Shown here piece by piece: positions 3,785 through 63,429 of a stretch of DNA of 64,000 nt. Under the pieces are notes generated by a model. The model was not told where the DNA came from. It saw nothing but the letters and a program-made list of their open reading frames with translations, and did not search any database. This stretch comes from Alphaproteobacteria bacterium. GTDB lineage: Bacteria > Pseudomonadota > Alphaproteobacteria > JAUHZC01. Made by a program: the position numbers and the translations under genes. Location: the NCBI GenBank assembly GCA_023898725.1, contig CP060236.1, positions 672,852 through 736,851 on the forward strand, written 5' to 3'. The stretch's first letter is position 1, and the number at the start of each line of letters is the position of its first letter.

Positions 3785-4101
3785 AATCTTTTTAAAGGAT
3801 GCAAGAATAACACACTTTCGGCGGATTTTGTAAAACTTAGGCATCGCCTGTTCTGGCGGATAAAGAAGAGAAAGCCTTCTGCGCCAAGGGTTATGCGTTA
3901 TTTTCATTAATACAATGCATGCGATATTTGCCTGTTTTATTATTGATAAAAAGAATGCAATATGTGTAGAAGCCCATTTTTTGTTGCAATTTTAACTCAT
4001 ATAAGGTGTGTTTGGCAAAAATGCCACTAAATTTTTAGAAAACATATTTACTTTTCAATGCGATTAAACAAATACTTGCATCAGAAAAATAGTGATACAA
4101 A

Positions 4102-5508
4102 ATGTTTAAAAACCTACGTAATGGGGGGGTATTTAAACAATTTTTACTGACAACTACCTTTGTCATAACAATTTCCTTTGTGGGTAAGCACCCAATTCAC
4201 GCAAGTTCTGCTCCTTTGGCTGACGATGAAAATATCCTGCCAAGCATTGAAAACATTCAGCGCATGCGAACTACTCTCTTTGCCTTACCACCCTTGCAAA
4301 CTAAGGAAGATGCATACGCGGAACTTGGAGACCCAAGTGGGCAAGAGGCTCTTGTTCAAAATTCATACAACTTGGTTACAAGTTTGGGGGTTAAGGTTGC
4401 CGTGGAATCAATTCCCGCGATCGTTCGAGCACTCCTGCGTGACCGCATGAAACTGGCGAGGGAGGCACATAAGCTTTTAAGTATGCTGGGTCAGGTTCAA
4501 GAGGAATCTGAGGCCCTTTGTGTCGAAGTTCGTGGGATTGCGGAGATGTTCCCTGAGCCTCAATCAACGGATTTTGCAAGCCCGACGCGCAGTATTGCCA
4601 GTATTGAGTCTACAGAAAGTGCAGACAGTGCTTCAGGAGAAAGAGGTGTCTCCAATATGCTGGGAGAGAATCGTCATGCGGCACAAAGAAATCTGCGTAC
4701 ACTCAAGGCTGTCGTTAGAAATATGTTGGATCGTATTCGATTTCTTGATCAAGCATCAAGAGATCTTCAGAACAGTAGGCCATGGAATGAAGACACTGCA
4801 ACACCACCAAGGCCTGGAGGAAATTCTATACTGCAAGGATCAGAAGAATCCACCGATGACCCAACGTTACATGATCCTCTAGAAGGCATCACAATTGGTC
4901 TACGGACTTTCTTGGCAGATCATGCAATGGAAGTCTCCTCTGGTGATGATCTGAAAAGTCTTATAACAGGGGTGACCACACTGTGCCGTTCGCAATGCCA
5001 AAAATCCACTGATCTTATGCAACAGGTTGTGGAAACGAAGAAGGTGCTAAAAGATTTTGAAGATATAGATGACACACACACACTGCTTAACCTAGCACGC
5101 AAAGCTGCCACCGTTTCTAAGACACAAAAGACCCTCCTAGCAGAAGAGCGCACGCGTTCGGACAATCTGCAGGCGCGCGTGACTGATTGCGAGGAAAGAC
5201 TTGTGCGCCATGAGACGGCAGAGGCAAAAATACGGGATATTCTCGGTCTTTCGTCTGACATTTCGGCTGACTCTCTTGCCAAAAGGGTAGAAGAGAGCGT
5301 GCGTGAGCGTGAAGAGGCACAAAGGCGCCTTGCCTCTGCGTTAACAAAAGCCCAGGAGGACCTTGTGGCTGCCTTGCAAAGAAGTCAACAAGGTGTTGAA
5401 CCAAGTTCACGTACTCCCCTTCTAGAATCATCTAGGGCTGATTTACCATCTACTGATAACGAAGAGAGGGGTTCGGGAAACTCAGGCGGTTGTTGCTTGA
5501 TTTCATAA
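4102..5508 (+). CDS. Hypothetical exported coiled-coil protein with C-terminal CaaX-like box (…GSGNSGGCCLIS-stop)
   Basis: 468-aa ORF after a ~320-nt AT-rich leader. N-terminal hydrophobic segment with an IHA-SS cleavage-like site. Long E/K/R-rich helical regions. The last residues, CCLIS, were read directly from the DNA. Confidence 0.6.
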   Translation: MFKNLRNGGVFKQFLLTTTFVITISFVGKHPIHASSAPLADDENILPSIENIQRMRTTLFALPPLQTKEDAYAELGDPSGQEALVQNSYNLVTSLGVKVAVESIPAIVRALLRDRMKLAREAHKLLSMLGQVQEESEALCVEVRGIAEMFPEPQSTDFASPTRSIASIESTESADSASGERGVSNMLGENRHAAQRNLRTLKAVVRNMLDRIRFLDQASRDLQNSRPWNEDTATPPRPGGNSILQGSEESTDDPTLHDPLEGITIGLRTFLADHAMEVSSGDDLKSLITGVTTLCRSQCQKSTDLMQQVVETKKVLKDFEDIDDTHTLLNLARKAATVSKTQKTLLAEERTRSDNLQARVTDCEERLVRHETAEAKIRDILGLSSDISADSLAKRVEESVREREEAQRRLASALTKAQEDLVAALQRSQQGVEPSSRTPLLESSRADLPSTDNEERGSGNSGGCCLIS

Positions 5509-5531: not shown

Positions 5532-6278
5532 ATGACTAAAAGATTAACGTGCTTGACGTTATGGGCAGCTATGTCGGCTGTGTCTCTATCGGCGGATAAT
5601 GCTATTGCTCACCCATCGTCGTCACCTGCAGCAGCTGATTCAAAAAAGTGGTCCGTTTTGTTGAGTGTTGATTTGGCTGGAAAAAACCTAACAGTAAGAA
5701 ACCGGATGCAATCGTCCACAACACCTGCCCCTTGGAGTAAAACGACAGAATCAAAACGTGCGGTTCTTCCTGGCTTCACAGTGCAAGGGCATCTGAACAT
5801 AGGCGAGAGTGGTGGCTACTTAGGCGCAGAAATTTCCTACTTGATTGGGGACTTAAAAGCACAATCCAACTCCCCTCATCTTCTATATGTGAATAAGAAT
5901 CACGCGCTTCACCACAGAAGAATGTCGCATATGATCCAAACAGGCCTAATTATTGGAAAGAGATTTGGTGATTCTGCTGTACACCTAAAGGCAGGCGTTG
6001 CTTTTGCAAAAGTTCGTCACAGGACATTCTTTGACCGTAATCAAGTTTCCAATCTTCATTATGACAAAAATGCGACGGGATATTATGTAGGGGTTGGCTA
6101 CGTAAAGAACATTGCTCACAATTTTGCTGTGGGTATAGATTATGAATATGCATTATATAGAACTGAGAAAAAAGCCTTTGATCATCCAGGGGCTGTGCGG
6201 GTTCTTAGAAACAAAGGAAACTTCAAAAGTCAGGCCACGATTGATACCTTGAAGTTGCGTTTCATTTACAAAATATAA
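5532..6278 (+). CDS. Outer-membrane beta-barrel protein (Omp25/Omp31/Hbp-like family)
   Basis: 248 aa; signal peptide (AAMSAVSLSADNAIA). Alternating amphipathic beta-strand pattern with aromatic-rich strands (YYVGVGYV, FAVGIDYEY). Confidence 0.6.
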   Translation: MTKRLTCLTLWAAMSAVSLSADNAIAHPSSSPAAADSKKWSVLLSVDLAGKNLTVRNRMQSSTTPAPWSKTTESKRAVLPGFTVQGHLNIGESGGYLGAEISYLIGDLKAQSNSPHLLYVNKNHALHHRRMSHMIQTGLIIGKRFGDSAVHLKAGVAFAKVRHRTFFDRNQVSNLHYDKNATGYYVGVGYVKNIAHNFAVGIDYEYALYRTEKKAFDHPGAVRVLRNKGNFKSQATIDTLKLRFIYKI

Positions 6279-13929: not shown

Positions 13930-14865
13930 ATGAGTTGGTTGCAGAAACTTAAAGAAGGTTTTACAAAAACGACAACAACAATTACGCGGGGCATCTCAGA
14001 TATTGTTACAAAAACAAAGCTGGATGATGATACCTTAACAGCACTAGAGGAGTATTTAATCACAACAGATATGGGCCCACAAGTTGCGGGAGACTTGTGT
14101 GGTTACCTGCGCAGCAAACGTTTTGCAAAAGAGATTACTGCTGATGAGGTGCGGGGGTTCCTGGCTGAGCATGTGGCTGAAAAACTGGAGCCTTATGCAA
14201 AACCAATTGCGTGGAGTAATGAACCTGGTGGTACAGATCCTGATGTTTTAATTGTAGTGGGTATTAACGGAGCAGGAAAAACAACGACTATTGGAAAACT
14301 TCTTCCATATTTGAAAAAACAGGGGAGAACTATCCGGGTTGTTGCCGGTGATACTTTTCGTGCTGCAGCGGTTAATCAATTACGGGCTTGGTGTGAGAAG
14401 GCGGATATTCCAATTGCCTCAGGGGTCGATGGTGCCGATGCCGCGGCGCTTGCCTACCAAGAAATAGTCACAGCCAAAACCACAGGAGATAACCTTGTCG
14501 TTGTTGACACAGCCGGACGTTTACACACAAAGAAAAATCTGATGGAAGAACTGTCTAAAGTTATCGCTGTGACCCGTAAACTGGTAGATGCAAAGCATAT
14601 TCATTGCGTTATGGTTCTTGATGCAACGAGCGGGCAAAACGTCCTACAGCAGGTCACCACCTTTCAAGAGTATATTCCTCTCACAGGCATTATTATGACA
14701 AAACTAGACGGAACGGCCAAAGGAGGTGTGCTGCTTAATGTTGTGCACACAAAGCAACTGTGTGTACATTTCATAGGCGTGGGTGAATCAGCTGATGCCC
14801 TCCAAGCAATGAGCGCAGATGCCTTTGCGCGCAATCTTTTCGGTCTGGGTGAGGTAACCAACTAG
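13930..14865 (+). CDS. ftsY: Signal recognition particle receptor FtsY (short form without an acidic A-domain)
   Basis: ATG at 13930, 2 nt after the mtaB stop. GTPase motifs GINGAGKTT, DTAGR, TKLD. Confidence 0.9.
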   Translation: MSWLQKLKEGFTKTTTTITRGISDIVTKTKLDDDTLTALEEYLITTDMGPQVAGDLCGYLRSKRFAKEITADEVRGFLAEHVAEKLEPYAKPIAWSNEPGGTDPDVLIVVGINGAGKTTTIGKLLPYLKKQGRTIRVVAGDTFRAAAVNQLRAWCEKADIPIASGVDGADAAALAYQEIVTAKTTGDNLVVVDTAGRLHTKKNLMEELSKVIAVTRKLVDAKHIHCVMVLDATSGQNVLQQVTTFQEYIPLTGIIMTKLDGTAKGGVLLNVVHTKQLCVHFIGVGESADALQAMSADAFARNLFGLGEVTN

Positions 14866-15305
14866 TCAGGTTTTTCTGTTGTTTGTGTGACAGATTCGCC
14901 TTCAGTGCTGTAGGCAGGAAGTTGTGACAAAGAAGGGTCCTCCTTGAGCACAGTTATTTGAGCCCGCGCAAGAAACTCCTTGCGCTTGAGTTCTGTGTTT
15001 TTGGCAATGAGCATTGAACGACGTTTGCGTAGCTCTTCTTCTGTTGCGAGGGGAATTTCTTGGGTATCAAGAAAAGCTGCGGCTGAAATGGGCTCTTTAA
15101 GAGGAGGTGTCTGTGTGATTTGTGCCTTGATCTTCTCTAAGTCTTTTTTGTCAGCAGAGACATCTGTGGAAGTTTTTTGAGGAGTAGAGGCTTTCTCCGC
15201 TGTAACTGGCTGGGCAAATGCGTGTGAAAAAGTTAAGGCTATGAGTGCAATCAAGCAACTGTGTGTCCATATATTTATCATCAGCGGTCTCTCTTCTCTT
15301 GTCAT
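14862..15305 (-). CDS. Hypothetical exported protein (operon member 7)
   Basis: 147 aa, signal peptide (CLIALIALTFSHAFA), K/E-rich. Overlaps the upstream gene by 4 nt. Confidence 0.5.
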   Translation of the reverse strand: MTREERPLMINIWTHSCLIALIALTFSHAFAQPVTAEKASTPQKTSTDVSADKKDLEKIKAQITQTPPLKEPISAAAFLDTQEIPLATEEELRKRRSMLIAKNTELKRKEFLARAQITVLKEDPSLSQLPAYSTEGESVTQTTEKPD

Positions 15306-16036
15306 TTCTCAGCATTAATTTTTGCAGACTGGTCTGGTAATCCCGAAACAGTTGCTTTTTGAACGAATTCTTTGATGGTACCAACTGCAGCACCTAAATC
15401 TTTGAGAACTTCTTCTGCTTGGGGAAGGGGTTCCGAATATTGGGCACGCCATTTTGCATGAATGGTCTGAGCATTATTAAGCCTTTCTTCACTTTTTTTG
15501 AGCATTGCCTGAAGCTTTTCAAGGTCTGTAGTCTCGGAGGCATCTCTTTGAATATTGCGTACATCAAGAAGCTCACTCAAAATCTCTGTAATCACTGACT
15601 TGCGTTCACTATCGATCACTTTTCGTGCTTCTTGATCGATGAGCTTCTGTTGGGAGGCTTTCTCACGGTCTTCCAGATCTTTTTCTCTTTGTTTTGCCCG
15701 TTCCTCAAACTTTGCACGAATAGCGCGCAACTTCTGATGTTTTTTTTGTGCAATACCTATATCTTTTGCCGCTTTGCGACGTGCTGCGTGTGCTTCTGTA
15801 CGTTTGGTTGCTAATTCATGCTGTGACTTCTTCAGCAACATACTGGCTGTATCAGTTTGTTTGCTTAGTGTTTCCATTTCCATGTGATCGGCTTCTGCTT
15901 TCAACTTTTGGGCCTCCGCAGATTTTACAGGATCAGCTGTAGGGGTTCCAGGTATATCAACAGCGATACAGGGTGACACACATAACAAAAGTCTCAGATA
16001 AGAAGCAAGTAGAGGAATAAAGCGATTATTGTGCAT
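15302..16036 (-). CDS. Hypothetical exported coiled-coil protein (operon member 6)
   Basis: 244 aa, signal peptide, long K/E/R/Q heptad-like helix. Overlaps member 5 by 11 nt. Confidence 0.5.
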   Translation of the reverse strand: MHNNRFIPLLASYLRLLLCVSPCIAVDIPGTPTADPVKSAEAQKLKAEADHMEMETLSKQTDTASMLLKKSQHELATKRTEAHAARRKAAKDIGIAQKKHQKLRAIRAKFEERAKQREKDLEDREKASQQKLIDQEARKVIDSERKSVITEILSELLDVRNIQRDASETTDLEKLQAMLKKSEERLNNAQTIHAKWRAQYSEPLPQAEEVLKDLGAAVGTIKEFVQKATVSGLPDQSAKINAEK

Positions 16037-17111
16037 GAGATTTTTCCTTGGCTAAAATTTTTGTAGACTCAGTGTTATACTCTTTTCCCTCAGGAACGGT
16101 GACTTTGAGACAGTTGTGGAATTCTTTGAAGAGTTGTTTCCAGCACCCGCTATCGTTTTTGGATTTGCAACTCCAGAAGTGCAGTCTATAACGACTGATA
16201 CACTCACTCTCTTTACGAACACCTTTAAAGTTTCCGTATAGTACCATGCCTTGACGTTTCTGCTCAGAAATTTTGAGCTTCTCTTCCACTTCAGCTTGTG
16301 TGCGCAGTGCTTCTTTTTTGCTCACCGTTTCTTTAATAGCTGCAGGAATTACTTTTTCATGGCATGTGAGTTTTTCGGCTTTTCGGGCCTCTTCAACAGC
16401 TTTCTTAATCTTTTTCTCACAGCTCATCTTTGATTTCGCCAGCTGAGATTCATAGTTAGATGCAAGCTGTTTTTTCAAATCGGCCACAGCTCGTTCAATT
16501 TCTTGACGCATATCGCGTTGCTGTTTCTCAAGAAAAGCTTTTTCCCGCTCTTCTATTGCTTTTGATTTCAAGGCATATTCTTTTTTAATCTTTTCCAGCG
16601 AATCTTTGTGCTTTCTTGTGACCTCTGGTGCAGATCCCCCTTCTGTTGTTGACTGTAGTTGAGTGGTGACGGCCTTTTCAAGCTTTACTTGACGGGCTTC
16701 GATGGCTTTTTCTTTATCATCCAGAGAGGCAATCTTTTGGTGCAGCTCTTCATTCATCTTTTTATTTTCGTCATGGACTTTTTTAAGATTATCGCGGGTT
16801 TCTTTGTTTTCTTTTTCCATACGTGTTCCCACAGATGCCAAAAATTCTTGTAGGGCCTTACTGTTGGCTTCAAGTCGGGCAATTTTTGCTTCGGAAAGGC
16901 TCTCTGGTCCTGGCGTGGTGTGGTTCCCTTTAGCGTTTGATGAGGATGCAGTAAATTCTAATTCATCTGTGTTTTCATAACCAACTTCGGCAAGAAGCGC
17001 CAAGTACTCTTGTTGCTTGGGCAAGTCTGATGATGGCTGTTCGCGCGCACCGACTGATAGGAGTGGCGAAAAGATCAGAAAAAAAACGGAGAGCGTGGCA
17101 ATGGTGCGCAT
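16026..17111 (-). CDS. Hypothetical exported coiled-coil protein with Cys-rich C-terminal domain (operon member 5)
   Basis: 361 aa, signal peptide MRTIATLSVFFLIFSPLLSVGA, about 200 aa of coiled coil, then a C-terminus with 6 Cys. Confidence 0.5.
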   Translation of the reverse strand: MRTIATLSVFFLIFSPLLSVGAREQPSSDLPKQQEYLALLAEVGYENTDELEFTASSSNAKGNHTTPGPESLSEAKIARLEANSKALQEFLASVGTRMEKENKETRDNLKKVHDENKKMNEELHQKIASLDDKEKAIEARQVKLEKAVTTQLQSTTEGGSAPEVTRKHKDSLEKIKKEYALKSKAIEEREKAFLEKQQRDMRQEIERAVADLKKQLASNYESQLAKSKMSCEKKIKKAVEEARKAEKLTCHEKVIPAAIKETVSKKEALRTQAEVEEKLKISEQKRQGMVLYGNFKGVRKESECISRYRLHFWSCKSKNDSGCWKQLFKEFHNCLKVTVPEGKEYNTESTKILAKEKSHAQ

Positions 17112-17207
17112 GCGTATTTTTTACTCGTTAGAACTATTTCAAATTTTAACAAAAAAAGATTAAGAATCTATTGCTATAGAAGGCCTATACAGGGGTTACG
17201 AAGAGCG

Positions 17208-17882
17208 CTACTGTGACAGAGAGGTGTCGTTTGTTGGTGCTGATGAGGAAGGTTTTTCATCGGCCTCTGTTCTCAGCTCTTCATTTTGGCTGCGCAGCTC
17301 ATCAATTTTTTCTTGTGTGACTTGGTTATCAAGCTTGGTCATATTAAGCATGATTTTGCTTCCCTCGGCATCGTAAGTTGCAATATCAGAAAGCGCTTTT
17401 GCTGAAATAGCTTGTGCGCGATTGATGTCACCATTGAGATACGCTATTTTTTGGTCATTATCATGCACCTCTCGGAGCAACCGCTGCAGTCGGTCTTTCA
17501 ACCACTCACTGAAGTTAGTGTCTGTTTTTGTTTCAGGATATCTTGAAACACACCGTTTTGTAATATCCCAAATTATGTCTTTACAGGCAGAGTTTCCTTC
17601 ACACTCAGATGTAATATCACTAACATTGCGACAGTCATTGAGAGCCATTGCTGCTTCATCAAGAGACTGTGCTTTTTTGTAAAGATTTTTTAGTTGCTCA
17701 TTTGTGACTGTGCTAATTGCTTCTTGAGAGGTATTTTCAATTTCAGCAATTTTACTTTCTACGTCATCAACGCTGACTGTCGGAAGGTCTGTTACCGCAA
17801 CAACAGGTGCGGTCGAGAGAAGACTGAAACAGAACCCCAGACCAAGAATAAAACCCTTGTTTATGTGAGTATTTATCATCAT
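17208..17882 (-). CDS. Hypothetical exported protein (operon member 4)
   Basis: 224 aa, signal peptide, 4 Cys, helical C-terminal half. Its start abuts the stop of member 3. Confidence 0.5.
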   Translation of the reverse strand: MMINTHINKGFILGLGFCFSLLSTAPVVAVTDLPTVSVDDVESKIAEIENTSQEAISTVTNEQLKNLYKKAQSLDEAAMALNDCRNVSDITSECEGNSACKDIIWDITKRCVSRYPETKTDTNFSEWLKDRLQRLLREVHDNDQKIAYLNGDINRAQAISAKALSDIATYDAEGSKIMLNMTKLDNQVTQEKIDELRSQNEELRTEADEKPSSSAPTNDTSLSQ

Positions 17883-18781
17883 CAGGATCCTTCTTTTGTG
17901 GCTTTTTGGGCCTCAGGGGTCTCGGTAGGGACTTTACTAGAATCATCTTCTGCTTCAAGAACAACTTCTGTCTCTTCTTCAACAGCTTTTTCTGTATCTG
18001 GAGTTGTTTTTTTGGCAGAGACATTATCAGATGTCCCCACGGCCTTTTGCTTTGATCCCTGGGTATTGATCACAAGGTCCTCAACAGTTGAGGAGCGTTT
18101 TTGGACATAGCCTTTATGAAAAAACCGTTTTCCGCAGTTTTTATGTAAAGAGTAGTACAGAACCTCCTCACATCCCTTATTTCCGTTACACTGAGGGCGT
18201 AGCTGGGAAAATGTATCGGCACACTCACGATAGAATCCCGCTTTTCGAAATAGGTCATCTGCCTTATTAAACATTGCGATGTATGCATAAAGATGATTGC
18301 GGGCAATAGCTGGTCTGATACACCCTTTGAGTGTGTGGCGTGCTTCTAACGTGCAATTTGAATCGTTAGCGCAGGCTGTTACTTTTGTGTTGTATTGCTC
18401 TGCACAGGCCCTGATGGTGGGGTCATCAATGCTTGAAAAGTCTGTCTTGGGGGGTACTGTTGGTTGTACGTCAGTACTCTTTTTTACAGCAGTGACTGGC
18501 TTTTCTTTCTGAACCTCTTCTTTTTTTGCCGGAGTTTTTTCTTTCTCTGGAGTCTTATCCTCTGGTTTTTTTGTCGCTTCTTTAGTGACAGCTGCAGCAG
18601 GAGCAGGCACAGCGGGAGTAGGCACAGGAGCCGCAGGGGTGTCAGATTTACCCGTAAAGATATCAAGAATTTTCTTGATTGTATCACCACTCTCTGATGT
18701 GGCGTGCACGGAAGCGGTGAGGCTTACCACACATGCAAAAAGAGACATAAATTTTAAATATCTATACATTCCTCGATCCAA
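17882..18781 (-). CDS. Hypothetical exported Pro/Lys-rich, Cys-rich protein (operon member 3)
   Basis: 299 aa, signal peptide, PAAPVPTPAVPAPAA / KEKTPAKKEE low-complexity linker, a central domain with about 10 Cys, and an acidic tail. Confidence 0.5.
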   Translation of the reverse strand: MDRGMYRYLKFMSLFACVVSLTASVHATSESGDTIKKILDIFTGKSDTPAAPVPTPAVPAPAAAVTKEATKKPEDKTPEKEKTPAKKEEVQKEKPVTAVKKSTDVQPTVPPKTDFSSIDDPTIRACAEQYNTKVTACANDSNCTLEARHTLKGCIRPAIARNHLYAYIAMFNKADDLFRKAGFYRECADTFSQLRPQCNGNKGCEEVLYYSLHKNCGKRFFHKGYVQKRSSTVEDLVINTQGSKQKAVGTSDNVSAKKTTPDTEKAVEEETEVVLEAEDDSSKVPTETPEAQKATKEGS

Positions 18782-18892
18782 TTTTGGATACTTTAGAGTG
18801 TAGAGCCTAATTCCTAAGGAATAGTTTATAAAGTGTAGATAAAAATAAATTCTTACTTAACCTTTAGCAAAAAAGAGTAACTATTATTCGTT

Positions 18893-19834
18893 TTATAGGC
18901 TATCAATACGAATCTCAATTCGCCTGTTTTCATAACAGTTGGCTTTGTCTTGAACGGGGTGGTGTTCACCAAACCCAGCTGCAGCAAGGCGTCCAGCAGG
19001 AATTCCTTGTTTTTCAAGTACCGCTACAACAGACATTGCGCGAGCAAAGGAAAGCTCCCAGTTGGATTTAAAGCGGATATTGTTGATTGGAACAGTATCT
19101 GTATGTCCGTCGACGCGTACAATCCAGGGAATAGCATTCGGTAGCTCCAAGAGAATGGTTTGAACAATGCTTGCCAGATCTTTAATTTTGGCCATACCGG
19201 CGGGGGTAAGTTTGGCAGAAGCAGTCTTGAAGAGAAGGTTTGAGTCGAACACAAACCGATCGTCATGTTGGCGAATGCCTTTGATTTTTTCTAATTTTTT
19301 TGAAACCTGCATTAAAAAATCCGAGCGCTTTTGTGCCATTGATACCAGAGCATTGACCTCAGACAGTTTCATTTGGAGGCTTTGTGACTCCTCTTTGAGG
19401 TTGCGTGTTTTTGCTGTTAGCTCAGTTACCATATGCTCAAGATTTTGAATGACCTGCTCTTTTTCTGTAAGAGTTTGCGCATGTGCGACATTTTGTATCT
19501 TTAAGGTATCTATGGTTTGTGTAAGAGACATCTCCCTATTTAATGACTGTAAAAGTGCCTGTTTCATCGCGTGAGAATTAAAGTTGGCGGCTGATAATTG
19601 CGCCCATAGTTTTTTCTTATCAATTGTTTCACGGGTGAGCTTTTGATTCGTCTCATTGAGTTGGGTTTTTTGGTCGCTTACGCGAAGACTTAGGTGTGTT
19701 TGGCCTACAACGAAAACAATAAGTGTAAAGATCACGACAAGAAGCACAGAGGAAAGCGCATCAACAAACCCTGGCCAAAAGTCCTGGTCTGTCGTCTCTC
19801 TGGTAAGGCTTCCTGAAAGCTTGCGTGTTGGCAT
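18893..19834 (-). CDS. MotB/TolR-like membrane protein: N-terminal TM helix with conserved Asp, long periplasmic coiled coil, C-terminal OmpA-type peptidoglycan-binding domain
   Basis: TM segment FWPGFVDALSSVLLVVIF aligns with MotB YADFMTAMMAFF and ExbD PFIDVMLVLL, including the Asp. C-terminus VRVDGHTDTVP…NWELSFARA…GFGEHHP…NRRIEIRI is a canonical OmpA_C. Likely ATG (MPTRKLSG) at 19834, 2 nt after the upstream stop. The longer ORF runs to 19927. Confidence 0.7.
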   Translation of the reverse strand: MPTRKLSGSLTRETTDQDFWPGFVDALSSVLLVVIFTLIVFVVGQTHLSLRVSDQKTQLNETNQKLTRETIDKKKLWAQLSAANFNSHAMKQALLQSLNREMSLTQTIDTLKIQNVAHAQTLTEKEQVIQNLEHMVTELTAKTRNLKEESQSLQMKLSEVNALVSMAQKRSDFLMQVSKKLEKIKGIRQHDDRFVFDSNLLFKTASAKLTPAGMAKIKDLASIVQTILLELPNAIPWIVRVDGHTDTVPINNIRFKSNWELSFARAMSVVAVLEKQGIPAGRLAAAGFGEHHPVQDKANCYENRRIEIRIDSL

Positions 19835-19836
19835 AA

Positions 19837-20097
19837 TCAATAATGTTCCTCTACTAAATCTACGCCCTTGAGCAATATAAGGATAATGGCAAATGGGAAA
19901 AAAAGTACCGACCAAAATAAGAGCCACCCCATGGATCCGCGGTACTCAAGAGTAAGTGTGATATCGTTGAAGTTTAAACCAAGATTTTTCACAGCCAGGA
20001 TAAGAGCAACAGGGGGAAAGGTAAACAAGAATAGAATAAAAAGAACAATGTTTCCCCTGTATGTAAAAGGGTAAGAATATTTTTTGACGATAGGCAT
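19837..20097 (-). CDS. Small 2-TM membrane protein translationally coupled to the MotB-like gene
   Basis: About 86 aa from the first ATG (a TTG-initiated ORF extends to 20109). Two hydrophobic helices, both containing prolines (FTFPPVALIL, FFPFAIILIL). Its TGA stop lies 2 nt before the downstream ATG. Confidence 0.45.
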   Translation of the reverse strand: MPIVKKYSYPFTYRGNIVLFILFLFTFPPVALILAVKNLGLNFNDITLTLEYRGSMGWLLFWSVLFFPFAIILILLKGVDLVEEHY

Positions 20098-52024: not shown

Positions 52025-52869
52025 GCGCGTTCTCCTGATCGAAAATTAAGGCGGTCTTTGTGAGAAAGACATGTGTCAAGTCCTCGTCCATTTGCAATGC
52101 GGGTATTGCCAGATTGCGGGGCCCGAAGTCCCGATATTTTTAGAAACTTTTTTGCTTGGAGGGGGGTGAATGCGCCTCCATCAGTGTCCGAGCCGTTCAC
52201 TGCACCCAAGACAAGCCAGACCCCCTTCCATCCAAATGGCCTCTCTTTGACGCTGAATGCCGCGTATTGAAAACTGGAATCTGGCATATGTATGTTTGGA
52301 CGCAAAGGCCTATCAGGTGCGATGATATCGGGCAAAGACAGCATCTTGGCTTGAGAAAGGTGTAGCCAGAAAGCAGCGGCTTCACTTTTATGTGGGGCGT
52401 CAAGACCAGCACCACTTATGTGTCCGTCCCCTCTACCAACGGGGCTATCCTGACCAAATACTTGATCCGCCTCAGAAAAATTACCAGGGAGTGCATCAAA
52501 CGTTTCAACGAACTGGATTACTGCCCCGCGGATAGTAGTATATTGACTGATGGCACTTTTGATGCGCGCATCATCGACGCCTCCAAAAAGTTCGCCCACG
52601 CTGTTGCGCAAGAAAAAACCGACAACGACAAGTGCTATAAGTATCTCGATTAATCCAAACGCTGGGAGAGTGGGAGTGAATAAACGTTTGATATGTGCCT
52701 GTATTAGTGAGATGAAATCACCTCTAATCTTAGGCCAACAATGGGGCGATGGCCGTGAAGATGTATGCATTAATGTGTGCTTACACTCATTTGATTGTAG
52801 GTAAGAACCTTTTGTCCTAATCCTACAGGATGGTTGACATGATATAAAGGGCTCTTTGTCTAGCATCAC
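51991..52869 (-). CDS. Type IV pilin-like / pseudopilin protein, second paralog
   Basis: …TPTLPA-FGLIEILIALVVVGFFL has the same motif. True start uncertain: the longest ORF has about 70 aa before the motif. Confidence 0.45.
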   Translation of the reverse strand: MMLDKEPFISCQPSCRIRTKGSYLQSNECKHTLMHTSSRPSPHCWPKIRGDFISLIQAHIKRLFTPTLPAFGLIEILIALVVVGFFLRNSVGELFGGVDDARIKSAISQYTTIRGAVIQFVETFDALPGNFSEADQVFGQDSPVGRGDGHISGAGLDAPHKSEAAAFWLHLSQAKMLSLPDIIAPDRPLRPNIHMPDSSFQYAAFSVKERPFGWKGVWLVLGAVNGSDTDGGAFTPLQAKKFLKISGLRAPQSGNTRIANGRGLDTCLSHKDRLNFRSGERACTVYFRLWGG

Positions 52870-57840: not shown

Positions 57841-57924
57841 AATTCAACAGAATTGGATACACTGCACGAAGGCAATCGTTGCAAAGAGTGTAGGGCAGTG
57901 AGGGTATTTATCGTGAACCGATAC

Positions 57925-59478
57925 ATGCTGTTAGTAGGATGGCTAGTGTTCTTGAGCGCCGCTTCTGTTCCGCTTGTGGCAAAGCCTGTAGACCCTGTGA
58001 GTTTTACCCTTCAGCTAATCCCCGCGCACTCCCCCACGCAAGAGTACCTTGATGTGAAGCTTGTTTTCCATATTGAAAGTGGCTGGAAAATTCTTCACCC
58101 TGATGGTCAGGCTGTTGACGGTATTGCGCCTCGCATTACAACAGATCAAGGAAAAAATATCCGTGATCTCACAATTACATGGCCCCAATCTAAGAGACCT
58201 TTGCGTGATGGAGCGTCGGTTACTATGCGTGTATATCCCCACGATTCGAAGATTCCCGTGGATTTCATTATGCGAATTGTTTTTTCGATTTGTCGGGAGG
58301 AATGTCGTTTTTTTGATGAAAAATTGGCAACACTTTTACCATCACTGCAGGATTACCAGAGGGGGATAACAAGTCTTCCACCAGTGCCGCTGAAAGAAGT
58401 AATGCCCTCTGTTGGGGGAAGCATCGGTATTATTCTTCTGATGGCACTTTTGGGAGGGTTTATTCTGAATTTTATGCCCTGCGTGCTGCCGGTTTTATCT
58501 TTAAAGCTGATGGCATTGACTAAAGGAGATTTTTCCCGGGAAAGCGTCGTTAGAAAATCTCTGGCCACGTTTGCGGGGCTTATGGTGTCTTTTTGGCTTT
58601 TGGCAGTGGCAGTGATATTTTTGCGCAAATTTGGGGTTCATGTTGGGTGGGGAATGCACTTTCAACAACCGGTTTTTGTTGGCATCATGATGATTGTCTT
58701 GATAATTTTTTCGCTCAATATGTTCGGGGTATTTGAGTTTCGGCTTCCTCTTTTTATGGGGATTAATTTTTCAAGGTTTAGAGACACGCTGTGGCGGGAT
58801 TTTGGATTGGGCTTTTTGGCCACAGTATTAGCGACACCATGTTCCGCACCGTTTTTAGGAACCGCGGTGGGCTATGCTTTGACACATGATGCGGCCACAA
58901 TTGTGGCTGTATTTACATTTCTCGGAGTAGGATTTGGGATTCCTTATCTTGTAATAATCCTGAAGCCCACTCTTTATCATTACCTTCCGCGACCGGGACC
59001 CTGGATGCAACGGTTGCGTATTATTCTGGGTGCTAGCCTTCTCGTGACGGTTATCTGGCTGAGCACCGTACTGGTGGGGGAAATTCAGACAGAAAACACG
59101 CATTCAGGTGAGTCTACCGTCATTGATGCAAAAAAGCGTATCCATATCTTTTCACAGATATTACTCGATACACTGATTGCAGAAGGAAAAACAGTTTTTG
59201 TTGATATTACTGCGCGTTGGTGTGTGACGTGTATCGCGAATAAAAAATTCATTCTTTCAGATAGTCGCCTTATTCAAGATTTTAAGGATCAACAAGTCTT
59301 CATTTTACAAGGAGACTGGACACGTCCATCTTCGGAAATTACTCGTTTTATTAACAATCACGGTCGTTATGGTATTCCATTTAATGCTATTTACAGTCCC
59401 AAATGTCCTCACGGTTATGTTTTTCCTGAGGTTTTAACGGTAGAGGCCATTCGGTCGCGCGTAAAAATGTGTCGTTAG
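57925..59478 (+). CDS. dsbD: Thiol:disulfide interchange protein DsbD
   Basis: Signal peptide from the ATG at 57925; N-terminal periplasmic domain; central TM core with Cys pair (MPCVLP…TPCSAP); C-terminal thioredoxin domain with WCVTC. Confidence 0.8.
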   Translation: MLLVGWLVFLSAASVPLVAKPVDPVSFTLQLIPAHSPTQEYLDVKLVFHIESGWKILHPDGQAVDGIAPRITTDQGKNIRDLTITWPQSKRPLRDGASVTMRVYPHDSKIPVDFIMRIVFSICREECRFFDEKLATLLPSLQDYQRGITSLPPVPLKEVMPSVGGSIGIILLMALLGGFILNFMPCVLPVLSLKLMALTKGDFSRESVVRKSLATFAGLMVSFWLLAVAVIFLRKFGVHVGWGMHFQQPVFVGIMMIVLIIFSLNMFGVFEFRLPLFMGINFSRFRDTLWRDFGLGFLATVLATPCSAPFLGTAVGYALTHDAATIVAVFTFLGVGFGIPYLVIILKPTLYHYLPRPGPWMQRLRIILGASLLVTVIWLSTVLVGEIQTENTHSGESTVIDAKKRIHIFSQILLDTLIAEGKTVFVDITARWCVTCIANKKFILSDSRLIQDFKDQQVFILQGDWTRPSSEITRFINNHGRYGIPFNAIYSPKCPHGYVFPEVLTVEAIRSRVKMCR

Positions 59479-60936: not shown

Positions 60937-63429
60937 ATGAGAAATTACATACGATTTTTTTTACTGTTACTTTTAAATATTTCTGTATATTCTAATCTTC
61001 AGGCAAAAGAGTCGATTGTTTTTTTTCAATCATCACATGCAGGAGTTAGTCAAGATTTACCTTTTGTAGTTACCAGCTCTAATAGACGGGCAAGTATTCA
61101 GGCAGCCCGGAAAAAACGCGCAGAAGAACGCCAAAAGGCCCGAGAAGCTGCAGCAGCAAAGCGCAAGGCCGATGCGGCAAAGCGCAGGGCTGATCGTGAA
61201 AAGAAAACTGCAAATAGAAAGTCTTCTACAAGGAGTAAATCTACTCGTCCTCGTATAAATCGTACTTCTAACCGCACCTCAAAGAGTACTAAGTCAAATA
61301 CACGTTCTGCGCGCACTGCTTCTAAAAAATCTACCAGGCCCACACGCAGCAGTAAAACATCGGTGAGTTCTTCGCGTGGTGCTAAAAAGAGGGCAGCTCC
61401 AGCTCGTGGGGGTTCTAAGAAAAGGGCAGCTCCGGCTCGTGGGGGTTCTAAGAAAAGGTCAGCTCCGGCCCGTGGGGGTGCTAAAAAAGATTCAGCTCCG
61501 GCTCGCGGGGGTGCTAAAAAGGGGGCAGCTCCGGCCCGTGGGGGTGCTAAAAAGAGGGCAGCTCCGGCCCGTGGGGGTTCTAAAAAAGGGGCAGCTCCGG
61601 CTCGTGGGGGTGCTAAAAAAGATTCAGCTCCGGCTCGTGGGGGTGCTAAAAAAGATTCAGCTCCGGCTCGCGGGGGTGCTAAAAAGGGGGCAGCTCCGGC
61701 TCGCGGGGGTGCTAAAAAGGGGGCAGCTCCGGCTCGCGGGGGTGCTAAAAAGGGGGCAGCTCCGGCCCGTGGAGGTTCTAAGAAAGCCGTCCGATCAGGG
61801 AAGAAAGATAATGAACCAGGCGATGATTCCGCCCGCGACAAGAAATCTGGCGGTTCGGATCAAAAGGGTTCTCGCAAAGGAAAAAGGAAGAAACAATCAG
61901 ACAATAGCCCTGACAGCGATGAACCAGGCGATGATTCCGCCCGCGACAAGCAGTCTGGCGGTTCGGATCAAAAGGGTTCTCGCAAAGGAAAAAGGAAGAA
62001 ACAATCAGACAATAGCCCTGACAGCGATGAACCAGGCGATGATTCCGCCCGCGACAAGCAGTCTGGCGGTTCGGATCAAAAGGGTTCTCGCAAAGGAAAA
62101 AGGAAGAAACAATCAGACAATAGCCCTGACAGCGATGAACCAGGCGATGATTCCGCCCGCGACAAGCAGTCTGGCGGTTCGGATCAAAAGGGTTCTCGCA
62201 AAGGAAAAAGGAAGAAACAATCAGACAATAGCCCTGACAGCGATGAACCAGGCGATGATTCCGCCCGCGACAAGCAGTCTGGCGGTTCGGATCAAAAGGG
62301 TTCTCGCAAAGGAAAAAGGAAGAAACAATCAGACAATAGCCCTGACAGCGATGAACCAGGCGATTTTTATGAATTAGATGAAGATTCCTACGATTTAGAG
62401 GGTAGTGATGATATTGAAGGTCCTCAGGAAAAAAGCTTTTTCGGTTCAGGTGAAACTTTTTCAGGCCTTACAGAAAAATCAAGTACTCTTGCTCAGCAAG
62501 CAAACGCTTCTACGGGAGGGCTTCTGGGACACGTTGCTAGGGGTATCGTGCAGGATGTTGTTCCTCAGAACATGCAGGAAGTTGCTGGGGCTGGGATGGC
62601 AGGTGATACCCAATCATTAGTTGGTATGGCAGCAGGTGTCGCTCCAGAAGGTTTTGTGCAGGACTATGCAAACAGTTATGCAGAAGGTGGTATGGAGGGA
62701 TTCCAGCAAGAAAGTCTTGGTATGGCAGCGCAGGTAGTTCCGGGAAGTGCTGGAAATGCGATCGAAGCGTATCAGCAAGGTGGCATGGAGGGATTCCAGC
62801 AAGAAAGTCTTGGTATGGCAGCGCAGGTAGTTCCGGGAAGTGCTGGGAATGCGATCGAAGCGTATCAGCAAGGTGGCATGGAGGGATTCCAGCAAGAAAG
62901 TCTTGGTATGGCAGCGCAGGTAGTTCCGGGAAGTGCTGGGAATGCGATCGAAGCGTATCAGCAAGGTGGCATGGAGGGATTCCAGCAAGAAAGTCTTGGT
63001 ATGGCAGCGCAGGTAGTTCCGGGAAGTGCTGGGAATGCGATCGAAGCGTATCACCAAGGTGGTATGGAGGGATTCCAACAAGAAAGTCTTGGTATGGCAG
63101 CGCAGGTGGGGGAATATGGATTCCCACAAGAATCATGGAACAAAAGTTTTGAGCATAACGAGGGTAGTGAATTTGGGACTAACGGGATGTTCGGTCTCAA
63201 TGCCGGACATGATGAAGGTTTTTACGAAGACCCCAACGCCGGCCACGGTTATGAACCCTATCAAGATTCCAATGCCGGATATGATGAAGGTTTTTACGAA
63301 GACCCCAACGCCGGCCACGGTTATGAACCCTATCAAGATTCCAATGCCGGATATGACGAAGGTTTTTACGAAGACCCCAATGCCTTCTATGGTGAGGGTT
63401 TTGACCAAAATTATGCTGGTGAGTACTAA
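60937..63429 (+). CDS. Large exported modular tandem-repeat protein (basic N-terminal half, acidic C-terminal half)
   Basis: 830 aa; signal peptide MRNYIRFFLLLLLNISVYSNLQA. Four different repeat families in series (see the repeat features). Preceded by a 155-nt AT-rich region with a poly-A tract. Confidence 0.65.
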   Translation: MRNYIRFFLLLLLNISVYSNLQAKESIVFFQSSHAGVSQDLPFVVTSSNRRASIQAARKKRAEERQKAREAAAAKRKADAAKRRADREKKTANRKSSTRSKSTRPRINRTSNRTSKSTKSNTRSARTASKKSTRPTRSSKTSVSSSRGAKKRAAPARGGSKKRAAPARGGSKKRSAPARGGAKKDSAPARGGAKKGAAPARGGAKKRAAPARGGSKKGAAPARGGAKKDSAPARGGAKKDSAPARGGAKKGAAPARGGAKKGAAPARGGAKKGAAPARGGSKKAVRSGKKDNEPGDDSARDKKSGGSDQKGSRKGKRKKQSDNSPDSDEPGDDSARDKQSGGSDQKGSRKGKRKKQSDNSPDSDEPGDDSARDKQSGGSDQKGSRKGKRKKQSDNSPDSDEPGDDSARDKQSGGSDQKGSRKGKRKKQSDNSPDSDEPGDDSARDKQSGGSDQKGSRKGKRKKQSDNSPDSDEPGDFYELDEDSYDLEGSDDIEGPQEKSFFGSGETFSGLTEKSSTLAQQANASTGGLLGHVARGIVQDVVPQNMQEVAGAGMAGDTQSLVGMAAGVAPEGFVQDYANSYAEGGMEGFQQESLGMAAQVVPGSAGNAIEAYQQGGMEGFQQESLGMAAQVVPGSAGNAIEAYQQGGMEGFQQESLGMAAQVVPGSAGNAIEAYQQGGMEGFQQESLGMAAQVVPGSAGNAIEAYHQGGMEGFQQESLGMAAQVGEYGFPQESWNKSFEHNEGSEFGTNGMFGLNAGHDEGFYEDPNAGHGYEPYQDSNAGYDEGFYEDPNAGHGYEPYQDSNAGYDEGFYEDPNAFYGEGFDQNYAGEY
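61384..61790 (+). repeat. 33-nt tandem repeat, about 12 copies (aa unit APARGG[AS]KK[RGD][AS])
   Basis: gggggtgctaaaaagggggcagctccggctcgc-type units, contiguous with no spacers. Confidence 0.85.
61813..62365 (+). repeat. 108-nt tandem repeat, 5 copies (aa unit EPGDDSARDKQSGGSDQKGSRKGKRKKQSDNSPDSD)
   Basis: Copies begin at 61813, 61921, 62029, 62137, 62245. Copies 2-5 are identical; copy 1 differs by 2 nt. Confidence 0.9.
62687..63110 (+). repeat. 93-nt tandem repeat, about 4.5 copies (aa unit GMEGFQQESLGMAAQVVPGSAGNAIEAYQQG)
   Basis: ttccagcaagaaagtcttggtatggcagcgcaggtagttccgggaagtgct… repeats with period 93. Confidence 0.9.
63205..63420 (+). repeat. 72-nt tandem repeat, about 3 copies (aa unit DEGFYEDPNAGHGYEPYQDSNAGY)
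   Basis: gatgaaggtttttacgaagaccccaacgccggccacggttatgaaccctatcaagattccaatgccggatat with period 72. Confidence 0.85.

Follow-up and report, generated by a model that had tools for sequence, protein, structure and literature searches.

An orphan alphaproteobacterial protein with a predicted Sec-type signal peptide and a Ras-like CaaX tail: a candidate for lipidation by a eukaryotic host

Gene X, its tail and its only relative

The window analysed here is a stretch of 64,000 nucleotides from an alphaproteobacterium (contig CP060236.1), and the subject of this report is one of its genes, gene X, which encodes a protein ending in Cys-Cys-Leu-Ile-Ser. The last four residues, C465-L-I-S, form a CaaX box (Cys-aliphatic-aliphatic-X) of the eukaryotic prenylation type, directly preceded by a second cysteine, C464, and by a GSGNSGG linker upstream of the cysteine pair. 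The C-terminus reads GSGNSGGCCLIS, or in its longer form ...ERGSGNSGGCCLIS, and is followed by TAA. The product is held at NCBI with exactly this sequence as USO01067.1 (H6849_03110, 'MAG: hypothetical protein [Alphaproteobacteria bacterium]'), carried on a single contig record of 1,107,460 bp (1.107 Mb), and a separate Logan assembly of run SRR12358676 shows 0 mismatches to the window over 15,508 compared bases. A preliminary description of this DNA, made from the sequence alone, had recognized the CaaX box, the second cysteine and the flexible linker, all of which hold, and had named a sequencing error that shifts the stop codon as something that would undo its reading. Because the second assembly and the NCBI record give the identical sequence, such an error or a frameshift is unlikely, and a frameshift artefact as the source of the tail was discarded on this ground. 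The gene also looks native: its GC content at third codon positions (GC3) is 0.39, like that of neighbouring genes, and recent horizontal transfer was rejected for this reason. Antisense open reading frames across the gene are short and without support, an Rfam scan of the region returned no match, and notable tandem repeats are absent from the gene region, as are internal repeats from the protein.

To judge how unusual the ending is, the expected frequency of C-terminal motifs was computed from the amino-acid composition of the 57 window proteins and scaled to 1,100 proteins. This model predicts about 1.7 C-terminal Cys-aliphatic-aliphatic-X endings per 1,100 proteins, which puts a CaaX ending alone within chance and makes it unremarkable. 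With an X residue of the farnesyltransferase type the figure falls to about 0.4, and for CC-aaX, the form found in protein X, to only about 0.02; it is this form that is remarkable. Among the 57 window proteins, X included, no other ends in Cys-aliphatic-aliphatic-X, and one other has a cysteine at position -4, in CRQQ, which is not aliphatic. The tetrapeptide CLIS itself is among the motifs from experiment that served as 'Prenylation (positive)' training data for yeast farnesyltransferase (PMC9231725 S1 file); this match was looked up in the literature for the tetrapeptide and is not an assay of protein X. As a tetrapeptide, the box is biochemically competent for the yeast enzyme, and protein X may itself be lipidated. 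In yeast Ras2, which ends in CCIIS, the CaaX cysteine is farnesylated and the preceding cysteine palmitoylated, and the Ras2 pentapeptide confers dual lipidation when appended to another protein (PMC2173492; PMC9927470).

A phmmer search run exhaustively over 1.84 billion cluster representatives turned up a single relative of protein X, the 999-residue protein P0002, encoded on a 7.7-kb contig of GCA_964352755.1 from an uncultured alphaproteobacterium. In BLASTP the two proteins are 38% identical over residues 1-119 (E 2e-19), with the match confined to residues 1-120 of X. Both loci have the gene order holC, ndk, DUF2066-like, X, OMP_b-brl, recR, ybaB, with flanking DUF2066 and barrel proteins that are 57% and 43% identical, respectively, and P0002 is the positional orthologue of X. 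Beyond the conserved N-terminus the two proteins are not alignable, and P0002 has about 860 residues in the place of the variable body of X (residues 126-430). The P0002 C-terminus reads ...ALLEDEDTSNPCCVCFGATCC and ends in PCCVCFGATCC, without a CaaX box, while 5 of its 6 cysteines lie within the last 10 of 999 residues (P about 1.8e-10). The layout of the two tails is nonetheless common to both, with a disordered acidic stretch (DNEE in X, EDED in P0002), a short polar linker and a Cys-Cys-aliphatic motif (CCL and CCV); the small acidic patch stands 10-17 residues from the end in each protein, and in P0002 the acidic stretch EDEDTSNP precedes the cysteine cluster. Since P0002 gathers its cysteines at the tail even though its C-terminal half cannot be aligned with that of X, the terminal cysteine cluster is under selection within an otherwise freely evolving region, and the CaaX form itself is not.

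These observations bear directly on the simplest alternative, namely that the ending arose by chance and the tail has no function. The roughly 1.7 plain CaaX endings expected per 1,100 proteins of window composition speak for it, as do the housekeeping bacterial proteins in which a CaaX ending occurs (PMC2916131). Set against these are the cysteine cluster of P0002 at the equivalent place, despite the unalignable C-terminal half, and the scarcity of CC-aaX, with about 0.02 expected per proteome, and we hold a chance ending to be very improbable.

For the P0002 tail, Rab-type CC/CXC geranylgeranylation was considered and rejected because no Rab GTPase fold is apparent: in the NCBIfam search no family matches the protein, whose sequence suggests an extended helical body with many heptads. 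Modification of the Rab type requires the Rab escort protein REP. The bare C-terminal Cys-Cys of yeast Yck2 is palmitoylated by a DHHC enzyme (PMC2173492), which gives a eukaryotic precedent for the terminal -CC and the cysteine string of the orthologue.

Other searches brought no further relatives, and gene X is, by the searches made, an orphan. Pfam, NCBIfam and PDB-sequence searches of protein X gave sub-threshold noise only (DUF5917, MAT1, a myosin VI helix), with no Pfam or NCBIfam family reaching its cutoff; tblastn against plasmids gave no match, and a word-indexed homology search recovered only X itself. A scan of genomes with the DUF2066 alignment yielded no contig besides the orthologous one already identified, and two metagenome scans, with the barrel alignment A2 and the N-terminal alignment A1, found no additional relatives. 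A third related genome (L004) encodes a DUF2066 protein that is 66% identical, on a 2.1-kb contig that ends in the intergenic region upstream of X. No paper mentioning run SRR12358676 or the orthologue's study ERP117304 was found, and a literature search on the tail strings gave nothing useful.

Table 1. Features of gene X and its flanks, in window coordinates; residue numbers are those of protein X.
Feature	Residues	Position	Strand or place	Details
AT-rich upstream region of gene X		3785..4101	+	317 nt, 32.5% GC vs 45.4% for window
Two short inverted repeats		~4013-4040	upstream of X	TGGCAAAAATGCCA, then CTAAATTTTTAG; just upstream of -35-like TTGAC
Gene X		4102..5508	+	ATG start, 468 aa, TAA stop at 5506-5508
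Sec-type signal-peptide-like N-terminus	1-34	4102..4203	+	MFKNLRNGGVFKQ / FLLTTTFVITISFVG / KHPIHA↓SS; manual n/h/c-region reading
Conserved module besides signal	35-125	4204..4476	+	e.g. VRALL..R..LA; alignment A1
Variable acidic helical body, Ser/Thr/Pro-rich linkers, parts heptad-like	126-430	4477..5391	+	
Acidic Gly/Ser-rich linker, predicted disordered	431-463	5392..5490	+	…PSTDNEERGSGNSGG; pLDDT < 50, no secondary structure
CCLIS: CaaX box C465-L-I-S and preceding C464	464-468	5491..5505	+	TAA at 5506-5508
Outer-membrane beta-barrel protein (OMP_b-brl-like), own signal peptide		5532..6278	+	248 aa; AAGGAAG ribosome-binding site

Architecture, predicted export and the barrel partner

Three parts follow one another in protein X (Table 1): an N-terminal module with about 90 conserved residues, a fast-evolving stalk that is predicted to be helical and varies in length, and a predicted disordered tail that closes with the two cysteines of a candidate lipidation cassette. 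Read by hand, its N-terminus has a basic n-region (K3, R6, K12), a 14-residue hydrophobic core at residues 14-27 and the sequence IHA↓SS at 32-34, where the candidate cleavage site, with small residues at -3/-1, is I-H-A↓S; the equivalent site of P0002, likewise hand-judged, is L-S-A↓S. The preliminary description had left it undecided whether this hydrophobic stretch is a Sec signal or a membrane anchor. For the best 19-residue N-terminal segment the apparent insertion energy sums to +4.2 kcal/mol, and because of this value the N-terminus fits a cleavable signal peptide and not an anchor, which was ruled out; it looks like a Sec-type signal peptide. Across the first 28 residues, 20 of 28 are identical between X and P0002, and as 6 of those 20 use different codons, the N-terminus is both translated and constrained. 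The first 15 codons of X (4102-4146) are nearly identical in DNA to positions 2624-2668 of the orthologous contig (L002), against only 43-57% identity of the neighbouring proteins, an observation that suggests constraint at the mRNA level in addition to that on the peptide.

Several other modes of export were tried and set aside. A bacterial lipoprotein resembling the Lpp tether would need a lipobox, and none is present, the first cysteine of X being residue 140; a Tat substrate was ruled out as the twin arginine is absent; and a trimeric autotransporter or other type V protein was rejected since X is predicted to be all-helical and has no Pfam autotransporter domain. As for a type V two-partner system, the barrel encoded next to X has only 248 residues and is of the OMP_b-brl type, as compared with the roughly 550-residue, Omp85-like TpsB.

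The predicted mature protein has a mass of 47.5 kDa and a pI of 5.0. An AlphaFold2 model, built from the single sequence without an alignment and of low confidence (mean predicted local distance difference test score, pLDDT, of 47), is all-helical, with helices at residues 104-148, 180-224, 259-321, 325-386 and 389-430, and with disorder in the linkers (150-180 and 225-258) and the tail (431-468). The net charge of the last 30 residues is negative. Where the preliminary description had an E/K/R-rich coiled-coil body, glutamate and arginine are indeed abundant and the low-confidence model agrees with the helical character; lysine, in contrast, makes up only 4.1% of a protein that is also rich in leucine, serine and alanine, and a heptad scan confines heptad-like periodicity to a few segments. 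The AT-rich leader reported there is confirmed (Table 1). Within this leader both inverted repeats are kept in an alignment of three genomes (the window, L002 and L004) with compensatory changes (TGGC/GCCA, GGTA/TACC, TGAC/GTCA), which are seen in the arms of the first repeat, and a simple scan flagged 4013-4026 as a terminator-like hairpin. These repeats could be an operator or a small hairpin. Because they are conserved and adjoin a -35-like TTGAC, they suggest that X has a regulated promoter of its own.

Downstream, the barrel gene begins 23 nt past the stop codon of X, and the corresponding gap in the orthologous locus is 25 nt. The match of the barrel protein to Pfam PF13505 (E 5e-6, 27.2 bits) falls just below the cutoff of 28.7, and its AlphaFold2 model, again made without an alignment, has a pLDDT of 27 as against 47 for X; both models are too poor for a fold search. 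In both genomes the barrel protein has its own signal peptide. Given the 23-25-nt gap, the ribosome-binding site that precedes the barrel gene in both genomes and the absence of any terminator-like site between the two genes in a terminator scan, X and the barrel gene are probably co-transcribed. The window contains a further pairing of a barrel with an exported helical protein on the + strand (36933-38432), in which a second OMP_b-brl gene (36933-37649) is directly followed by a gene for a signal-peptide protein with (AAKKAAEDAAKAE)n repeats (37704-38432).

This arrangement allows X to be read as a protein of the bacterial envelope: a helical partner of the barrel, exported by Sec and located in the periplasm or at the outer membrane. 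Its terminal cysteines would then form disulfides, as cross-links within an oligomer or as a bond to a partner, or bind a metal, and the likeness of CCLIS to a CaaX box would be incidental. Such a role is consistent with the Sec-like N-terminus kept in both X and P0002, with the spacing of 23-25 nt to the OMP_b-brl gene in both genomes, with the upstream neighbour, which encodes an exported DUF2066 protein, with the tail of P0002, a cysteine string and not a CaaX box, and with the other barrel/helical pairs and exported, lysine- and glutamate-rich helical open reading frames of the window. It also agrees with the DsbD-like, periplasmic thiol-redox protein encoded at 57853-59478 (+), which has DsbD_TM and thioredoxin-like domains, bears on the fate of exported cysteines and indicates that the periplasm keeps a thiol-disulfide redox machinery. 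Further support comes from Rickettsia RARP-1, a protein with a Sec signal that was formerly thought to be secreted and proved to be periplasmic (bioRxiv 10.1101/2022.02.23.481736). On the other side, the mature barrel protein has no cysteine, which weakens a direct disulfide link, and an envelope role leaves unexplained both the exact CC-a-a-S-stop form (about 0.02 expected per proteome) and the position of the cluster at the extreme end of a disordered tail in both proteins. Vicinal disulfides are rare, and we know of no bacterial function for an extreme C-terminus of Cys-Cys-hydrophobic form that is carried on a flexible, acidic linker; both points count against this alternative. On balance we regard an envelope role, the main rival to host lipidation, as rather unlikely, while giving it serious weight.

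Secretion routes, host dependence and other window proteins

The preliminary description had likened X to injected effectors. In its strict form this means a classical substrate of type III or type IV secretion that is farnesylated in the host cytosol in the manner of Legionella AnkB or Salmonella SifA, and it draws on the CaaX tail, on a helical, partly coiled-coil body that belongs to no family, on the established paradigm of host-lipidated effectors, and on the acidic patch (DNEE / EDED) near the end of both orthologues, which we take to resemble the Dot/Icm 'E-block'. The results do not bear this version out. The conserved Sec-like N-terminus would route X to the periplasm before it could be coupled to either system, X is apparently co-transcribed with an outer-membrane barrel, and none of the proteins of the 64-kb window that were scanned against Pfam matched a type I, II, III or IV secretion family. 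Signals of the VirB/D4 type are basic in alphaproteobacteria, and the C-terminus of X is net negative. An injected effector is accordingly an improbable identity for X.

With regard to secretion, two adjacent open reading frames at 51338-52869 (-), with an 'AFGLIE' motif and a hydrophobic helix, resemble prepilins or pseudopilins, though Pfam N_methyl gives only E 0.3-0.9; they may belong to a system for type II secretion or type IV pili, or be what is left of one. More than 10 of the 57 window proteins combine a signal-like N-terminus with the lack of any family, many of them repetitive or rich in lysine and glutamate. Together with the contig size of 1.107 Mb, these many orphan exported proteins suggest a host-dependent organism, and it is only from these two features that we infer a eukaryotic host.

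Several of the exported proteins deserve mention in their own right. The protein encoded at 60937-63429 (+), which is 830 residues long, has a signal-like N-terminus, no cysteine and no Pfam family, and consists almost entirely of tandem repeats: APARGGAKK[GD][AS] occurs about 14 times, a 36-residue basic/acidic unit, DSARDKQSGGSDQKGSRKGKRKKQSDNSPDSDEPGD, 5 times, a 31-residue unit, GMEGFQQESLGMAAQVVPGSAGNAIEAYQQG, 4-5 times, and a unit rich in Tyr, Asp and Glu twice. Its appearance is that of a disordered repeat protein that is secreted. At 14862-19927 (-), five consecutive open reading frames have signal-like N-termini and no Pfam or NCBIfam family, most with a lysine- and glutamate-rich helical body, and adjoin an OmpA/MotB-like peptidoglycan-binding protein at 18893-19927. 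At 38572-40508 (+) lie adjacent genes for two signal-peptide proteins, of 367 and 278 residues, that seem to be paralogues; neither has a Pfam family, and they have acidic, low-complexity N-terminal parts and a common 'G(K/T)CY' region. Finally, a 313-residue protein encoded at 48858-49799 (-) has a signal- or anchor-like N-terminus and weak matches, about threshold, to Kdo/WaaP and RIO-kinase-like families.

Host lipidation of an exported protein and its precedents

The reading that we tentatively favour, while rating it at somewhat less than an even chance, is that X is a Sec-exported protein, released or surface-displayed, whose tail is lipidated by a eukaryotic host. After Sec export, X would be released or displayed on the surface inside a eukaryotic, probably protist, host cell, where the host farnesyltransferase would modify C465 of the CLIS box. 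The terminal -LIS would presumably be trimmed and the cysteine then carboxyl-methylated, a host DHHC acyltransferase would palmitoylate the adjacent C464 as in yeast Ras2 (CCIIS), and the C-terminal end of X would thereby become fixed in a host membrane. In the 999-residue orthologue, the palmitoylation-type cysteine string PCCVCFGATCC would do the same job in place of the CaaX box. The host, the crossing of the outer membrane and the lipidation of X are, all three, things that we infer.

Lipid anchoring of X by a eukaryotic host is plausible in light of what is known of other bacteria. Several bacterial proteins are known to be lipidated by the host, among them AnkB and the Pel proteins (farnesyl), SifA (prenyl and S-acyl), and LpdA and GobX (palmitoyl) (PMC2916131; PMC4951486). 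With regard to access, Legionella substrates of the Sec pathway and type II secretion get to the host cytosol (PMC5478897), and the Sec-dependent surface protein Sca2 of cytosolic Rickettsia is a direct target of a host cytosolic enzyme (PMC12636401).

A number of points weigh against host lipidation. Conservation of the CaaX box in orthologues was the check set by the preliminary description, and the box is not kept in P0002, the sole orthologue; an accidental CaaX box arising from a conserved 'CC + hydrophobic' tail with another function is not very improbable. The Sec-type signal, which was judged by eye, would initially take X to the periplasm, and the window shows no way for it to cross the outer membrane, the only hint among the proteins scanned against Pfam being the pair of weak prepilin-like open reading frames. 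The operon pairing with an outer-membrane barrel and the exported DUF2066 protein encoded upstream point towards a role in the envelope, RARP-1 shows that a protein with a Sec signal and a presumed place in the host can turn out to be periplasmic (bioRxiv 10.1101/2022.02.23.481736), and the organism is only presumed to live with a host.

A more specific form of host lipidation, which we consider a long shot, would make X a symbiont surface fibre, with its N-terminal module docked on the barrel, its stalk in the host cytosol and its tip farnesylated and palmitoylated by the host. The stalk would then vary in size between lineages, the two proteins having 468 and 999 residues. Were X such a fibre, the bacterial outer membrane would be tethered to a host membrane by a lipid anchor made by the host, which would constitute a Sec-dependent, non-injected form of host lipidation in which CaaX and cysteine-string tips are interchangeable between lineages.

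Among known lipidated proteins, the closest likeness in the tail is to the dual lipidation signal of yeast Ras2, which is of the H-Ras/N-Ras type. X and Ras2 share the Cys-Cys-aliphatic-aliphatic-Ser end, and CCLIS differs from the CCIIS of Ras2 by one conservative change (L for I). In contrast to Ras2, X has a body other than a GTPase, bears a Sec-type signal, a feature absent from Ras proteins, and is encoded by a bacterium. Within bacteria, X is likened by its motif to AnkB and the Pel proteins of Legionella pneumophila, in which a C-terminal CaaX box is used by host prenyltransferases for membrane anchoring; proteins of this type were found in silico by the same motif logic (PMC2916131; PMC4951486). 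AnkB and Pel proteins are, however, substrates of type IV secretion without Sec signals and have eukaryote-like domains (F-box, ankyrin), whereas in X a Sec-like signal is present, no domain can be recognised, the partner is an outer-membrane barrel and the orthologue lacks the CaaX box. Salmonella SifA and Legionella LpdA and GobX have a cysteine-rich, hydrophobic C-terminus with more than one host lipid modification, which CCLIS and CCVCFGATCC resemble, but they are delivered by type III or type IV secretion, contain known enzymatic or adaptor domains and have no sequence similarity to X. Rickettsia RARP-1 is likewise alphaproteobacterial, with a Sec signal and eukaryote-like features, and was first assumed to be secreted into the host; it differs from X in having ankyrin repeats and no lipidation motif, and serves as a cautionary analogue and not as a relative. 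The resemblance of X to the AnkB/SifA class is therefore one of motif only, and membership of that class is not established: the sole orthologue lacks the CaaX box, and delivery into a host cell and lipidation of the tail are only proposed for X.

Host lipidation as such is a known paradigm, and what is unusual in X is the combination of an orphan family, a Sec signal, an operon with a barrel and the exchange of a CaaX box for a cysteine string. To our knowledge, the host-lipidated bacterial proteins that have been well studied are without exception type III or type IV secretion substrates of a small number of cultured pathogens. Should X be an envelope protein, the lesson would be a useful warning that a 'textbook' CaaX box in a bacterial genome is by itself no evidence of an effector. 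If, on the other hand, X is lipidated by its host, this would extend host lipidation both to an uncultured, genome-reduced alphaproteobacterial lineage, probably a symbiont of protists, and to a protein that is exported by Sec and has an outer-membrane barrel as its partner. The pair of orthologues would then also suggest that, in evolution, a palmitoylation-type cysteine string can take the place of a CaaX box and vice versa.

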